DNA of 32,000 nt from Nostoc sp. PCC 7120 = FACHB-418 (GTDB taxonomy: Bacteria > Cyanobacteriota > Cyanobacteriia > Cyanobacteriales > Nostocaceae). Below, in pieces: positions 8,762 to 14,726 of this stretch. A program made the position numbers and the translations under genes. Position 1 is the first letter of the stretch. Each line of letters begins with the position of its first letter. Below the pieces are notes generated by a model. It did no database searches, was not told where the DNA came from, and saw nothing but the letters and a program-made list of their open reading frames with translations. The stretch covers positions 4,410,001-4,442,000 of the forward strand of contig NC_003272.1 in the NCBI RefSeq assembly GCF_000009705.1, written 5' to 3'.

Positions 8762-9073
8762 ATGGCAGCAGTATCTCTAAGCGTATCCACCGTTAAACCT
8801 TTAGGCGATCGCGTTTTCGTAAAAGTGAGCGCCTCTGAAGAAAAGACCGCAGGTGGTTTGTATTTGCCCGACACCGCTAAGGAAAAACCCCAAGTAGGTG
8901 AAGTAGTTGCTCTTGGAGCAGGCAAACGGAATGACGACGGTAGCCGTCAAGAATTGGAAGTAAAAGTTGGCGATAAAGTGCTGTACTCCAAGTACGCTGG
9001 CACCGATGTCAAGCTGGGAACCGAAGAATACGTCCTACTGTCTGAAAAAGACATTCTAGCAGTCGTTGGCTAA
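8762..9073 (+). CDS. groES: co-chaperonin GroES
   Basis: 103 aa. [11 protein letters not shown] start and mobile loop [21 protein letters not shown]. Confidence 0.97.
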
Positions 9074-9162: not shown

Positions 9163-10803
<1,641 letters not shown>

Positions 10804-10829
10804 TATTCTGTAGTCACATAAGTTTAAAA

Positions 10830-10866
10830 AATAGCTGCTTCCACAAAGGAAGTAGCTATTTTTTTC
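10830..10866 (+). terminator. intrinsic terminator of groESL
   Basis: aatagctgcttcc (10830-10842), loop acaaa, ggaagtagctatt (10848-10860) with one G.U pair, followed by a T-run. An A-run upstream would allow bidirectional use. Confidence 0.8.
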
Positions 10867-10907
10867 AATCAAATATAAAGGTACAAGGGACAATGTAGGA
10901 ATAAAAT

Positions 10908-11957
10908 ATGAAAGAGAAAGACGTAAAAATACTTTGGGGTCGTTCTGGAAATCGATGTGCTATTTGCAAAATTGAATTAACACCTGTTGGTTCAAAAAGC
11001 GTACTAGGCGAAATGGCTCATATTATTGCTGATTCACCTCAAGGCCCTCGCGGAGATAGTCACCTTACTTCTGAACAAAGAAATGAATACGATAATCTAA
11101 TTCTTTTATGTCCAACACATCATACCTTAATCGATAAAAATGAAGAAGAATGGACAGTAGAAAAATTAAGAATTATCAAGTCAGAACATGAAAATTGGGT
11201 TTCTAAGCAACTGAGTAACAACAATATTTATATTAATTCAATTGATAATTCAAAGTTTATTGAATCTAGAGAAAAATCATGGATTAGTTTCTCTGATAAT
11301 AAACTCTGGTTTATAACAAGTCTTACACCTCTTCATATTTATGAAGACAGTATTGATCCTTTAACACCAGAGTTATATAGCCTAATCAAGAGCTTGAGTT
11401 TACCTAAGTTTAATGGCTATTTTATGTTTTCAGATACTTTGAATCAATATAATACAGTACCTAATGAATACGGAATTATTAATCAAGAATCCCCAAACGA
11501 AGTCCAAAACAAACTTGGTCATAAAATTCAAGTTTTTAGAAACGGTCACTGTGAATTCTTAATGTGTTTAGAATATCTGAGAACTGGTAGAGATAATTCA
11601 TCTAATGATGTTTTAAAATATGACGATATGAGAAACAGTTTTATTTCCCAGATAGAAGGAATACTAAATATCTGGAGTAAAACTTTACCATTTAATGATA
11701 TGTTATTAACAGTAATGATGACTAATACTACTTATATCAGCTTATATTCGGGTCAACAAACATATAATGGTTATTTACTAGGAACTCCAGTAACTTCACC
11801 AACACTGAAATACAGTAGAGTTATTAATAAAACAGAAAAGCTACAATTTTTGCAGGATTTAGTAATCAAAAGGTTTGTGAACTACTTTGGGTTAAATATT
11901 AACAGTGTGTTTGCTGAAAATGGAAATATTAATTTGCCTAAGATACTTTATTACTAG
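10908..11957 (+). CDS. HNH endonuclease domain (aa ~15-85) fused to an unrecognised ~240-aa C-terminal domain
   Basis: CAIC(17-20)...AHII(H38)...NLILLCPTHHTLID (N63, C68, H71/H72) is a CxxC/CxxH zinc-finger HNH signature. The rest is rich in N/S/I/K/Y with no motif I recognise. The gene is strongly AT-rich. Confidence 0.75.
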   Translation: MKEKDVKILWGRSGNRCAICKIELTPVGSKSVLGEMAHIIADSPQGPRGDSHLTSEQRNEYDNLILLCPTHHTLIDKNEEEWTVEKLRIIKSEHENWVSKQLSNNNIYINSIDNSKFIESREKSWISFSDNKLWFITSLTPLHIYEDSIDPLTPELYSLIKSLSLPKFNGYFMFSDTLNQYNTVPNEYGIINQESPNEVQNKLGHKIQVFRNGHCEFLMCLEYLRTGRDNSSNDVLKYDDMRNSFISQIEGILNIWSKTLPFNDMLLTVMMTNTTYISLYSGQQTYNGYLLGTPVTSPTLKYSRVINKTEKLQFLQDLVIKRFVNYFGLNINSVFAENGNINLPKILYY

Positions 11958-12208
11958 CAATCAATCTTTGTGCTATGAGACCTCCAAGTAAATAACTATT
12001 CCCTCGCTATGGCAACCTGGAGGATTGGTGAGGCTAGGCGAGAAAGAGTCTCTTCATCGTCTTCATACTCCCATAGAATAATTGAATTTTGGGAAGTCCC
12101 TATGGCTAATTTCTGCTATCTCAAATTCTCAATTAAGGACATAGTCTAATTCGCCAATTTTTATGGGGTCATATTATGTGCAATTCTTTAATTCATCAAG
12201 ACATAAGT

Positions 12209-12736
12209 TCAACTTGCAGCCAAAAGTTCATCAAGTTTATTTTTTAAGTCTGGGGATACCATTAATGGATTGTAAACTTCTCCCTCATAAGGTTGCCAAA
12301 CATAACCAGAACTAAAAAGTCTAAAAACTTGTAATGTTTCAACTTCCTGCTCAATTTTTTTGGCTAACACTAATCCTGGGATAGATAAATTAGGTAAGTC
12401 TTCAATCAGTTCACTATAGGTTCTAAATTCATCCACTTCTACACCTACTAAAGCATAACGAAATGGTGGGGCAATACGTAGATGTTTATAGAGTCAAATA
12501 CCTAATTCTGTCATTAAATAAGCACTTTCAGGACTATCTATTCCCATTTCACTAATATTATTGGGATAAACGCGACACCACCAATTGTTTTCGATATCTT
12601 GAAAAGTATCTGCACGACATAGGCATGGGCTACCATTTGAGAGTATCAATATTTGACCCATAAAATGTTGAGCAAATTTTATGGCACTGATTTCTTCAGA
12701 TCCACATTCTGCTGATAAGCTAAATATCCATGCCAT
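12209..12736 (-). pseudogene. ~175-codon reading frame of unknown function interrupted by a single in-frame TGA (12494-12496)
   Basis: ORFs 12494..12736 and 12209..12436 are in the same frame (both start positions are congruent to 1 mod 3). Translation continues sensibly across the stop: ...LMTELGI*LYKHLRIAPPFRYALVGVEVDEFRTY... The second ORF's listed start is only a GTG. Confidence 0.6.
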
Positions 12737-12799
12737 TTCTGTAGCCTCCTATTGTTATATTTCTAAATATTATTGATTACTAATTTTGCAGAAACTTAA

Positions 12800-13639
12800 A
12801 TGAGCGAAACTGACACTATAGTAAAAGGCTGGCATGGCAAACTTAATTTAGTCTACGCCGATCGCTCAAATTCCACCCAGTTAATTTACAACCACCAGCA
12901 AGCACCGCTAAAGGTACAGCGTCCGTTTTATCCAGAAGGGGAAAAAGTCTGTCATAGTGTGATCTTACATACGGCCGGGGGTGTGGTGGGAGGCGATCGC
13001 CTATCTTATAATCTCCATCTCCAACCGAACGCACAAGCTTTAATTACCACAGCCGCCGCCGGGAAGGTATATCGCAGCGACGGCTTACAAGCTAGACAAA
13101 CCATCGAGATAAAAATTGATGCAGGTGCTTGTTTAGAATGGCTACCGCAGGAAACAATTTTATTTAATGGGGCAATTTATCGCCAAGATTTACGGGTAGA
13201 ATTAGCCACTGGAGCCAATTTCTTAGGCTGGGAAATTACCCGATTTGGTCGTAGTGCTAGAGGAGAGAAATTCTACCAAGGAGAATGGCGATCGCATACA
13301 GAAATTTGGCAACAAGGTGTTCCTTTGTGGATTGATCGTCAATGGCTACCGGGAAATGACGCCGTTTTCCACAGTCCTCATGGTTTGGCTGGACAACCAA
13401 TAGTAGGTAGTCTAGTTTGGTTGGGTAGTCCCATTTCCACAGAAATCATCGAAAAAGCGCGCAATTTAGGGAATACTCAAGGTGAAGCAGGCGTTACTTC
13501 CTTAGAAAATGGATTTTTATGTAGATATCGTGGTGCTTCCACGTCTGAAGTGAGAAACTGGTTTACGTCTGTTTGGCAATTGTTGCGAGGTGAGTTTTTC
13601 AGTCGTGGTAAATGTATACCCAGAGTGTGGCAAACTTAA
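12800..13639 (+). CDS. ureD: urease accessory protein UreD
   Basis: 279 aa, immediately upstream of ureA. Contains HTAGGVVGGD and WLPQETILF, typical UreD/UreH blocks. Confidence 0.88.
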   Translation: MSETDTIVKGWHGKLNLVYADRSNSTQLIYNHQQAPLKVQRPFYPEGEKVCHSVILHTAGGVVGGDRLSYNLHLQPNAQALITTAAAGKVYRSDGLQARQTIEIKIDAGACLEWLPQETILFNGAIYRQDLRVELATGANFLGWEITRFGRSARGEKFYQGEWRSHTEIWQQGVPLWIDRQWLPGNDAVFHSPHGLAGQPIVGSLVWLGSPISTEIIEKARNLGNTQGEAGVTSLENGFLCRYRGASTSEVRNWFTSVWQLLRGEFFSRGKCIPRVWQT

Positions 13640-13666
13640 TTCGTAATTTGTAATTCCTAATTAATT

Positions 13667-13969
13667 ATGCAGCTTACGCCACAAGAGAAAGATAAATTAT
13701 TGATTTTTACAGCCGCTTTAGTAGCAGAGAGGCGCAAAAATAGGGGGTTGAAACTTAACTATCCAGAAGCCGTGGCGTATATTTCTGCTGCTATTTTAGA
13801 AGGTGCGAGGGATGGCAATACAGTATCAGAGTTGATGAGTTATGGCACAACTCTTTTAACACGAGATGATGTTATGGAAGGGATAGCAGAAATGGTACAT
13901 GAAGTGCAGGTAGAAGCAACTTTTCCTGATGGGACAAAGTTAGTAACTGTGCATAATCCTATTCGTTAA
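13667..13969 (+). CDS. ureA: urease subunit gamma
   Basis: 100 aa. [23 protein letters not shown]...VTVHNPI is canonical. Confidence 0.96.
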
Positions 13970-13989
13970 TTTAATAAATTTAATTAATT

Positions 13990-14316
13990 ATGATTCCAGG
14001 GGAAATAATTACACCAAGCGGGGAAATTGAATTAAATGCTGGTCGTGATACTGTAAAATTGCTGGTTGCTAATACAGGAGATAGACCAATTCAAGTTGGT
14101 TCCCATTTTCATTTTTATGAAGTTAATTATGCGTTAATTTTTGATAGGGAATTGGCGTTAGGAATGCGTCTGGATATTCCTGCGGGGACGGCGGTTAGGT
14201 TTGAACCTGGGGATGAGAAGGAAGTGAGTTTAGTTCCTTTGGTTGGGAGTCGTCGGGTTTATGGGTTTAATGGGAGGGTGAATGGGGAAATTAACGCAGA
14301 GGGGCGCGGAGGTTAG
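13990..14316 (+). CDS. ureB: urease subunit beta
   Basis: 108 aa. MIPGEI...[14 protein letters not shown]...GDEKEV.LV. The last residues (AEGRGG) and the stop codon are encoded inside the left inverted repeat of the downstream cassette. Confidence 0.94.
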
Positions 14317-14320
14317 CGCG
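14295..14320. repeat. left 26-bp inverted repeat flanking the GxxExxY gene
   Basis: cgcagaggggcgcggaggttagcgcg matches the reverse complement of 14741-14766 at 25 of 26 positions. Confidence 0.85.
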
Positions 14321-14333
14321 GAGGGGTGCGGAG

Positions 14334-14726
14334 TTAGAGGTTGTTGGCTACGCGTTTGATGCCTTCTTTGAGGTGGAGGACTTTAAAGTTGAGGAGGAGT
14401 GCGAGTTTAGAATTAGTGAGTTTTAAATTAGTGAGTTTTAAATAAGTTAGAAGTTGTACTGCGTGAATGGGTTTAAGAGATTCCACAGATTTGATTTCAA
14501 TAATTACTTTATTTTCTACTATTAAATCCAATCGATAAACACAATCTAATTCCACTTCTTTATACACCAAAGGTACGGGAATTTGTCTACCCACTCTAAG
14601 TCCCTCCCGCCTCAACTCATAAAACAAACACTCCTCATAAGCCGACTCCGACAACCCTGGCCCCAACACCGTATGCACCCTCATCCCACACCCAATTATC
14701 ATCCCACTCAAATCATTCTCCTCCAT
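14334..14726 (-). CDS. GxxExxY family protein (PD-(D/E)xK nuclease fold), antisense inside the urease cluster
   Basis: GLSESAYE is the GxxExxY signature. D in YRLDLIV plus EIK in VIIEIKSV gives a D...ExK nuclease motif. Length (130 aa) is typical of the family. Confidence 0.8.
14411..14440. repeat. perfect 15-bp tandem duplication (aattagtgagtttta x2) inside the GxxExxY CDS
   Basis: Read directly. It is in-frame and yields [10 protein letters not shown] in the protein. The flanks 14403-14410 and 14441-14445 are degenerate partial copies. Confidence 0.9.

Follow-up and report, generated by a model that had tools for sequence, protein, structure and literature searches.

The groESL operon and the urease operon of Nostoc sp. 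PCC 7120 are separated by about 1.9 kb of AT-rich DNA, and the question raised by this locus is what the two reading frames within it encode and whether they belong together. An earlier note on this DNA had regarded the interval as a horizontally acquired accessory cassette, with a defence, toxin-immunity or selfish-endonuclease module as the obvious class. We analysed the interval within a window of 32 kb (positions 4,410,001 to 4,442,000 of contig NC_003272.1; coordinates without a locus number are those of the window, and L and P numbers denote loci and proteins collected for comparison). The gene order is groES (8762-9073), groEL (9169-10803), a 349-codon open reading frame (ORF; 10908-11957, plus strand) that encodes an HNH fusion protein, a spacer, a frame on the minus strand that we call orfB (12736-12209), and ureD (from 12800), followed by ureA and ureB. 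The two convergent ORFs, the spacer between them and the in-frame TGA codon of orfB all lie where the earlier note had placed them. The explanation that we favour, with moderate confidence, is that two independent pieces of conflict systems stand at a variable site after groEL: an HNH sensor-effector nuclease as exchangeable cargo, and an orphaned and broken immunity gene.

The N-terminal part of the 349-aa protein is an HNH nuclease domain of the type that acts as effector in Cap5 and SPARHA (Table 1). It matched Pfam HNH_2 (E = 1e-6) and, over residues 2-105, the PADLOC models PDC-M68A (5e-33) and SAVED_HNH (1e-28), with further matches to endonuclease effectors of CBASS and to SduA. When a profile of the family was compared with the PDB, the best match was the HNH-APAZ protein of SPARHA (9om4_A, 1e-30, residues 7-105), and Cap5 was also retrieved (7rwk, 7rwm and 8fm1, 1e-18 to 1e-14), with no match beyond residue ~119. 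The CCCH zinc ligands (C17, C20, C68, H72), the catalytic residues H38, N63 and H71 and the bridging residue E35 are all kept and occupy invariant columns of the family, and the motif G-E-x-A-H (G34-E35 ... H38) is likewise conserved. In SPARHA, the bridging Glu (E50) and the catalytic His three residues later (H53) are both essential, and activation occurs by tetramerisation; the HNH domain of SPARHA can be superimposed on that of Cap5, which is also activated by tetramerisation (PMC12738770, the study from which 9OM4 stems). The gene appears to be alr3663: its ORF is exactly 1050 bp long and lies three gene calls before ureD when the two halves of orfB are counted separately, and in published tables alr3663 is a 1050-bp gene and alr3666 encodes urease accessory protein D. 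A literature search by the locus tag found no paper on the function of alr3663.

The likeness to these systems is confined to the effector half. Like Cap5, the HNH-SAVED effector of CBASS (7RWK, 7RWM, 8FM1/8FMF), the protein carries this HNH subclass at its N-terminus (the profile matches cover residues 7-119), and the nuclease is followed by a domain of ~250 aa, regulatory in Cap5 and predicted to be so here, with a total length of 349 versus ~385 aa and with the bridging Glu and the catalytic His conserved. Unlike in Cap5, the C-terminal domain is not SAVED: Pfam detected no SAVED domain, the matches end by residue ~119, and Foldseek against the PDB, in which Cap5 structures are included, retrieved no SAVED structure. 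Moreover, no CD-NTase gene stands beside the HNH gene in the loci examined (the window, L001 and L082-L087), where no nucleotidyltransferase domain was found among the called genes. The SPARHA protein (9OM4) has the best-matching solved HNH domain and represents the class of oligomerisation-activated, collateral DNases (PMC12738770); it differs in that the Nostoc protein has no APAZ domain and no adjacent short Argonaute (pAgo) gene, and its C-terminal domain is unrelated. The HNH part also matches PDC-M68A of the PADLOC candidate system PDC-M68, but the match spans only positions 7-115 of the 253 positions of that profile. Clustering of 197 neighbouring ORFs from 31 loci revealed no conserved partner gene, which is a further difference from PDC-M68; the cyanobacterial loci were an exception only in that groES/groEL and a response regulator recur there. 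Ten neighbours were scanned with Pfam, and almost all were unannotated.

The remaining ~240 aa, which we call the C-domain, yielded no match in Pfam, NCBIfam, PADLOC or PHROG, and the sequence profile of the family matched PDB entries over the HNH part only. An AF2 model calculated from 44 homologues had a pLDDT of ~90 over residues 110-349 and revealed a two-lobed alpha/beta domain. R121, P141, G189, G213, E216 and G328 are invariant. Foldseek searches with the C-domain found no significant neighbour; the best E value was 0.07 in the PDB (TBP-like or AdoMetDC-like folds) and 2e-3 in BFVD, with TM scores below 0.25. That the C-domain is a divergent SAVED, APAZ or other known domain was rejected on the outcome of these sequence and Foldseek searches.

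A profile of the C-domain alone was then compared with 1.84 billion representative proteins, and only 96 clusters were found. Most of them were HNH fusions of ~355 aa. In the others, different effector domains took the place of HNH: TIR_2/bSEFIR-like domains in P0292, P0304 and P0311 (N-termini matching bSEFIR, PDC-S66 or ThsB), PIN_4 in P0246, and Schlafen AlbA_2 in P0320, P0325 and P0332. In the fusions with TIR, PIN and Schlafen, the alignment extends over the C-domain in full. Because a constant C-domain is combined with HNH, TIR, PIN and Schlafen effectors in exchange, we propose that it is a sensor or regulatory module, and this swapping is the main argument for such a role. Effector exchange on a constant C-terminal domain is usual in the architecture of single-protein sensor-effector immune genes. 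Genes of this kind, such as bSEFIR, PDC-S66 and PDC-M68A, likewise join an effector at the N-terminus (HNH, TIR, PIN or Schlafen) to a non-catalytic C-terminal domain within one polypeptide; they differ in that none of their models covers the C-domain. The effector half of the protein is of a known class, and its sensor-like half is undescribed.

From this architecture the following mechanism can be proposed. The C-domain would keep the HNH nuclease off until a cue linked to infection is detected. The cue-bound C-domain would then drive oligomerisation of the HNH domains such that a dimer of dimers (a tetramer) forms the active site, and the assembled HNH domains would cut DNA non-specifically, leading to abortive infection.

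Table 1. Features between groEL and ureD, in window coordinates (strand: +, - or. for none)
Feature	Coordinates	Strand	Description
groEL terminator hairpin	10826..10864	+	17-nt arms, A-run and T-run; inverted repeat, 94% complementary
42-nt leader of the HNH cargo	10866..10907	+	matches only L001 and L002, both with a close HNH gene
N-terminal HNH nuclease domain, residues 1-105	10908..11222	+	Cap5/SPARHA effector type
C-terminal alpha/beta domain, ~240 aa	11229..11954	+	no described family; predicted sensor/regulatory module
Non-coding spacer, 251 bp	11958..12208	.	93% identical to L002 from end to end; match to L001 confined to the first 94 nt; no other match
orfB, 175-codon gene	12209..12736	-	predicted immunity partner of a Tse2-like toxin; orphaned, interrupted
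In-frame TGA, codon 81 of orfB	12494..12496	-	Leu in homologues, mostly TTA
Junction with the urease operon	12737..12799	.	12737-12766: kept intergenic stretch between the toxin gene (orfA) and orfB; collinear with L002 to 12766

The protein could instead be a restriction endonuclease that depends on modification (Type IV) or is targeted to DNA in another way; its C-domain would then read DNA or a modified base and recruit a dimeric HNH to foreign DNA, and abortive infection would not be involved. HNH_2-type domains are indeed present in McrA/TagI-like enzymes (PMC12738770), and a weak match to the NCBIfam model PT-DNA_restrict for phosphorothioate-dependent restriction enzymes was obtained (14.6 bits versus a cutoff of 180). 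In addition, most loci contain no methyltransferase beside the gene, and such a solitary occurrence is typical of Type IV enzymes; one locus (L083) does have an adjacent N6_N4 DNA methyltransferase, which would suit DNA-targeted restriction; and the faint TBP-like Foldseek matches are DNA-binding saddle folds. However, the HNH domain matches the Cap5/SPARHA class (1e-30 to 1e-14) far more closely than it matches restriction enzymes (0.013), and the same C-domain occurs on TIR, PIN and Schlafen effectors, which need no DNA targeting. Furthermore, Pfam and NCBIfam detected no reader domain of the SRA, EVE, SBD or McrA-N type, although a reader of an unrecognised kind may be present, and the structural matches are not significant at TM scores below 0.25. 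A restriction enzyme of this kind is, in our estimate, unlikely.

Features of homing or selfish HNH genes, which the earlier note had listed among the candidates, were not found: the gene is intergenic and syntenic across strains, and no intron RNA family was detected. The C-domain had no match in 50,697 phage genomes, and matches in IMG/VR were to the HNH domain only.

It could further be supposed that the HNH ORF is a decaying, non-functional remnant that became AT-rich under relaxed selection. Its GC and GC3 are the lowest in the window, the neighbouring orfB is a pseudogene, and truncated forms of the family exist (the 195-aa protein P0043 of Nostoc sp. MS1 and the 253-aa forms described below). 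On the other hand, the ORF is full length with intact catalytic residues and zinc ligands, a length of ~350 aa is kept across phyla, and dN/dS is 0.17 in comparison with Aliinostoc sp. HNIBRCY26 (L002) and 0.26 in comparison with Anabaena UHCC 0399 (L001); these values indicate purifying selection on the HNH gene. Decay of the HNH gene is thus very improbable.

Comparison with related genomes showed that, among Nostocales, the cargo between groEL and orfB varies; here it spans positions 10866-12208 and consists of one gene. The groEL terminator hairpin is common to all relatives and is the left anchor of the slot. Homology to loci without the HNH gene (L003, L030, L004 and L005) ends at 10865; with Trichormus sp. 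M33 (L003), it resumes at 12221, i.e. at the 3' end of orfB. The groEL dS of L003 is 0.38, equal to that of the HNH-bearing L002, and yet the HNH gene is absent from L003. The leader and the 251-bp spacer travel with the HNH cargo and are common only to HNH-bearing loci. The left border of the earlier note, 10867, therefore agrees with the point where homology stops; its right border, 12799, was misplaced, and the variable segment ends at about 12208-12220.

The content of the slot differs from strain to strain. It is empty (~100-205 bp) in L030, L031, L065 and L067, and it holds the HNH gene in the window and in Aliinostoc sp. HNIBRCY26. In L003 it contains a 95-aa gene and a CoiA-like 455-aa gene; in L004 the 95-aa gene, a PIN toxin, a WD40 protein and an Rpn/DUF4351 gene; and in L005 the 95-aa gene, a PIN toxin and others. 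In these three Nostocales, the conserved 95-aa gene comes immediately after groEL and is encoded on the other strand (L003 12322-12609, L004 14170-14457, L005 12777-13064). In L004 and L005 it is followed by a PIN (VapC-like) toxin gene (L004 13765-14169, L005 12372-12776); the two look like a toxin-antitoxin pair in the same slot as the HNH gene. The site resembles a defence island or hotspot with cargo exchange in that cargo which differs among close relatives lies between two conserved anchors, namely the groEL terminator on the left and, on the right, orfB with its 3' end, the kinds observed being none, the HNH gene, PIN toxin-antitoxin pairs, Rpn/DUF4351, ParDE and a WD40 gene. It is unlike such hotspots in that no integrase, att-like repeats or tRNA were found, and in that a single cargo family has stayed in place even among deeply diverged lineages. 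Repeat, Rfam and pattern scans of the slot revealed no integrase, tRNA, intron, intein or meaningful flanking or terminal repeats, only short two-copy matches.

The spacers were also searched for functional elements. The only Rfam match, to rliE, was insignificant (E = 0.53, 23 bits versus a gathering score of 90), promoter-like sites were fewer than in shuffled sequence, and the 251-bp spacer contained no terminator or repeat. One tblastn match (31 aa, ~12140-12232, plus strand, E = 4e-4 in a 2.2-kb database) that would suggest the remains of an Rpn/DUF4351 gene in the 251-bp spacer was given no weight. Heptamer-like tandem repeats are present just past the groEL terminator in several genomes: CGCAGAGG-type repeats in the empty slots of L030, L031, L065 and L067, CACGAAG-type repeats before a C-domain-only gene (L104 4887-4994), and repeats in the spacer of L097 (4527-4673). 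They resemble the STRR repeats of cyanobacteria; the window has none at that position.

In spite of its patchy presence, the HNH gene appears to be an old resident of the slot. In all nine cyanobacterial loci recovered it is located 100-150 bp after groEL on the same strand. Relative to the protein of the window, identity is 95% in Aliinostoc sp. HNIBRCY26, 90% in Anabaena UHCC 0399, 63% in Nostoc CALU 546 (L082, with ureD further downstream as in the window), 61% in an uncultured cyanobacterium (L083, with ParDE before and a DNA methyltransferase after the gene), and, for the C-domain, 52% in the metagenomic locus L097 and ~41% in the metagenomic loci L104-L106. The gene has a GC content of 0.28-0.33 in every cyanobacterial copy, versus 0.36-0.43 in the flanks. 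Because copies that are only 41-63% identical share the site and the GC content, the low GC content is no evidence of recent import. C-domain identity and GroEL identity are correlated imperfectly (Pearson 0.71). In comparison with the closest relatives, L002 and L001, the dS of the HNH gene is 0.12-0.18 versus 0.36-0.40 for groEL (L002: 0.12 versus 0.36), and nucleotide identity peaks over the HNH gene (96%, versus 92% in the flanking groEL); this low dS may reflect recombinational exchange via the conserved flanks, or it may be an artefact of the extreme AT bias. The most economical reading is that the gene is fast-evolving, long resident in the slot and often lost or replaced, and that AT-richness is its standing property. 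The family would thus have stayed just after the groEL terminator in Nostocales for long, being AT-rich throughout.

The proposed horizontal acquisition is accordingly upheld as far as accessory cargo in a slot is concerned (10866-12208) and fails with respect to recent import. Of the properties expected of an islet, the interval has the atypical composition, and 10866-12208, but no more, shows presence or absence with sharp borders; recent arrival and signatures of mobility were not observed. An ancient locus shared by most related genomes, which the earlier note had named as speaking against its own proposal, was found in part: the locus is old, and the gene is patchy and not present in most genomes.

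The constant position raises the possibility that the HNH gene is tied to groESL, for example by read-through under heat or light stress, and acts in the cell or in development, for instance in programmed cell death or in DNA processing under stress, instead of in anti-phage defence. Such a role would fit the position in nine of nine cyanobacterial loci with protein identities from 41% to 95%, the correlation of C-domain and GroEL divergence, and the fact that the 42-nt leader contains no convincing promoter of its own. Nevertheless, many Nostocales whose groESL is intact lack the gene (L003-L005, L030, L031, L065 and L067), the slot of some strains holds unrelated cargo, and a strong terminator hairpin stands between groEL and the HNH gene. 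Moreover, the family has no link to groEL outside cyanobacteria and is found there among defence and mobile genes. A role tied to groESL is therefore quite doubtful.

The genomic contexts outside cyanobacteria include a Nitrosococcus plasmid, on which a CAP12-PCTIR TIR gene and HEPN_AbiU2 are located beside the family gene, a locus with ImmA/IrrE and transposases, and a locus with an integrase. The domains and these contexts point to a function of the HNH gene in defence. Of the classes that had been suggested for the gene, that of an accessory defence gene is thus favoured, by its patchy presence in close relatives as well as by domains and contexts. In L083 (7153-8253), the family gene is followed 70 bp later by the N6_N4 DNA methyltransferase gene, and a DUF4351 fragment accompanies ParDE before it. 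A 253-aa form that consists of the C-domain only was found in the metagenomic loci L104 (4995-5756), L105 (2631-3392) and L106 (4995-5756), with a GC content of 0.28 and 109 bp after groEL. Because this distance leaves no room, no nuclease domain is encoded upstream. The short form may have arisen by deletion, or it may serve as a decoy or have been domesticated.

The second gene, orfB, has a different history. With the stop codon masked, 612 homologues were found that are 65-93% identical, almost all 175 aa long, and distributed over several cyanobacterial orders. We fetched 80 genomic loci that encode a protein of this family (L002-L081). In Nostocales the gene is convergent with groEL, for example in Aliinostoc, Trichormus, Nostoc spongiaeforme, Nostoc FACHB-280, Anabaena CRKS33, Dolichospermum and Aphanizomenon, and its GC content is ~0.35 in all of these Nostocales. 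This arrangement and composition show that orfB did not arrive with the HNH gene. Clustering of neighbouring genes revealed a gene of ~148 aa located ~30 bp upstream of the orfB homologue on the same strand (e.g. L004 9528-9971), and tblastn detected it in 74 of the 80 loci. Its product matches nearly the whole Pfam model PF18648, the Tse2 ADP-ribosyltransferase toxin (E = 1e-15). The conserved order of a toxin gene followed by a small gene suggests that OrfB is the immunity partner of the toxin. Within the window, no toxin homologue was found (best tblastn E = 4.3), and orfB is here an orphan remnant of the module.

The view of the earlier note that the two ORFs form one cassette, recently imported as a nuclease toxin with its immunity gene or as a selfish endonuclease, can be judged from these data. 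The two genes are adjacent, convergent and both AT-rich, the same pair with the same spacer is present in Aliinostoc sp. HNIBRCY26, homologues with 96% and 93% identity to the two genes come from a JGI contig for which the same length (3764 bp) is stated, and the HNH dS of 0.12 is below the groEL dS of 0.36. However, orfB adjoins groEL without the HNH gene in at least seven Nostocales genomes, where it is an ancestral neighbour of groEL, and its regular partner is the Tse2-like toxin. No orfB was found near the HNH-family genes of L001, L082, L083, L085-L087 and L097-L130, nor with the family elsewhere. There are, in addition, no terminal repeats, integrase, tRNA, intron or intein, and the HNH gene is found at this very site also in lineages in which its copies are only 41-63% identical. 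A single cassette is already contradicted by synteny, and we regard it as most improbable.

The loss of the toxin and the inactivation of orfB could be traced in part. Homology to the toxin-bearing Aliinostoc (L002) breaks at ~12766, 33 bp before the ureD start, and positions 3-30 of the junction are 96% identical to L002. Because homology stops there and the window has no toxin gene, we conclude that a rearrangement removed the toxin gene and placed ureD next to orfB. At the stop position of orfB, all aligned homologues have Leu, and the codons in the correctly registered loci are TTA (seven), CTA, TTG and TCA (one each). Because the homologous codon is mostly TTA, the TGA can be explained by a single T-to-G change. 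Selenocysteine insertion or other recoding at this codon was ruled out, since the homologues have Leu and not Cys. The dN/dS of orfB in comparison with Aliinostoc is 0.14, and therefore its inactivation is recent. In the favoured explanation, orfB would be the downstream gene of a widespread two-gene module of cyanobacteria that lost its toxin gene by the rearrangement; the immunity gene would then have been unneeded and have acquired the single TTA-to-TGA nonsense change.

In Dolichospermum FACHB-1091 (L065 15951-18815), ureD-ureA-ureB are located beyond groES, in the opposite relative orientation compared with the window (12800-14316). Because the order in L065 differs while that in L082 equals that of the window, the groESL-urease neighbourhood must have been rearranged more than once, and probably one such event removed the toxin gene. 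The module of toxin and 175-aa gene is kept in several cyanobacterial orders with 65-93% identity, and two copies of it are present in some genomes (Spirulina CCNP1310, Tychonema LEGE 07203 and Coleofasciculus D1-CHI-01).

Among known systems, the one closest to the module is the type VI pair Tse2-Tsi2 of Pseudomonas aeruginosa. The resemblance consists in the upstream partner of orfB, which belongs to the Tse2 family (PF18648), and in the small gene within ~30 bp of it. In contrast, OrfB is 175 aa long with an alpha/beta fold in its model, and Tsi2 is a much smaller helical protein; Foldseek against the PDB gave no significant match, and Tsi2 was not among the 50 matches listed. Also, no context of type VI secretion was seen, and in the window the toxin is absent and orfB interrupted. 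A literature search found no report on a Tse2-like toxin/immunity pair in cyanobacteria. If our reading is right, orfB is a clean natural example of an immunity gene that decays after loss of its toxin, and it draws attention to a toxin module of the ADP-ribosyltransferase type that is highly conserved in cyanobacteria and uncharacterised.

Several points weigh against the favoured explanation. No model of a defence database covers the C-domain, its proposed sensor role is read from domain architecture, and the structural searches returned no informative neighbour. The HNH part of the AF2 model is poor (pLDDT 30-60). The 253-aa form at the same place is left unexplained if the family consists purely of defence nucleases, and the constant position next to groEL on the same strand may reflect a function in the cell that is connected with the chaperonin operon, and not one in defence. 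The methyltransferase of L083 hints at a pairing of the restriction-modification type, although L083 is the only locus with such an arrangement. As to orfB, the in-frame TGA may be a sequencing error. OrfB had no match in Pfam, NCBIfam, PADLOC or the PDB, and its suggested immunity role follows from gene order; the model of OrfB (mean pLDDT 74) yielded weak ferredoxin-like Foldseek matches (E of at least 0.085), none of them informative.

A more far-reaching possibility, which we put forward only tentatively, is that the C-domain represents a new fold for immune sensing. The family so defined would be small, with ~100 clusters (at 50% identity) of abortive-infection systems that consist of one protein and exchange their effectors. 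In heterocyst-forming cyanobacteria it would long have been fixed behind groESL, with expression or trigger possibly coupled to the chaperonin, on which many phages depend. If the favoured reading is right, the window contains a compact, stand-alone candidate immune gene whose sensing half matches nothing described and is combined in the family with four different killing domains, and knowledge of what the C-domain detects would add a new trigger-recognition module to bacterial immunity. The HNH copy seems to be located in a genetically tractable cyanobacterium in which anti-phage defence is poorly studied. The constant place just behind groESL is an unexplained regularity.

The composition of the interval was quantified by comparing 10867-12799 (1933 bp) with all 1933-bp windows in the same 32 kb. 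Its GC content is 0.322, versus 0.427 in the rest of the window; it is the minimum of all windows of this size (the next independent minimum is 0.374), and its tetranucleotide distance from the window average is the largest. These values bear out the AT-richness noted earlier, and the two lines sampled then had been counted exactly (18/60 G+C at 11281-11340 and 29/60 at 10021-10080). The dip is concentrated in the HNH ORF, which has a GC content of 0.303 and a GC3 of 0.221 (z = -5.7 and -3.9, respectively); the reference was 21 other ORFs of at least 100 aa, with a GC content of 0.443 +/- 0.025 and a GC3 of 0.380 +/- 0.041. The absence of the HIP1 octamer GCGATCGC from the interval is also real, as none of the 28 sites of the window lies in it, but it is not distinctive. 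The expected number is 1.7 (Poisson P0 = 0.18), 10.5% of the equal-sized windows are equally free of HIP1, a largest gap of such size occurs in 94% of random placements, and the window contains three gaps of 2.8-3.0 kb. Pooling of seven Nostocales copies of the HNH family gave no site in 7.1 kb versus 5.4 expected (P ~0.005; the copies are not independent). Hence, the absence is no more than chance in this window alone and has some, suggestive weight only when pooled. For genome scanning, it follows that low GC content alone was no sign of recent import here, and that 2 kb without HIP1 are uninformative.

Three minor features of the region were also recorded. A 13-nt direct repeat, GATTACTAAT(A/T)TT, with 12 of 13 identical positions, brackets the interval at 10795-10807 (over the groEL stop codon) and 12775-12787 (13 bp before the ureD start); it is probably due to chance in AT-rich DNA. 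The urease operon is split between ureB and ureC by a gene on the minus strand (14334-14726) for a GxxExxY protein of 130 aa (TIGR04256, E = 6e-40) with a short internal LKLTN repeat. The GC skew is strongest in the window at 14001-14500 (+0.505).

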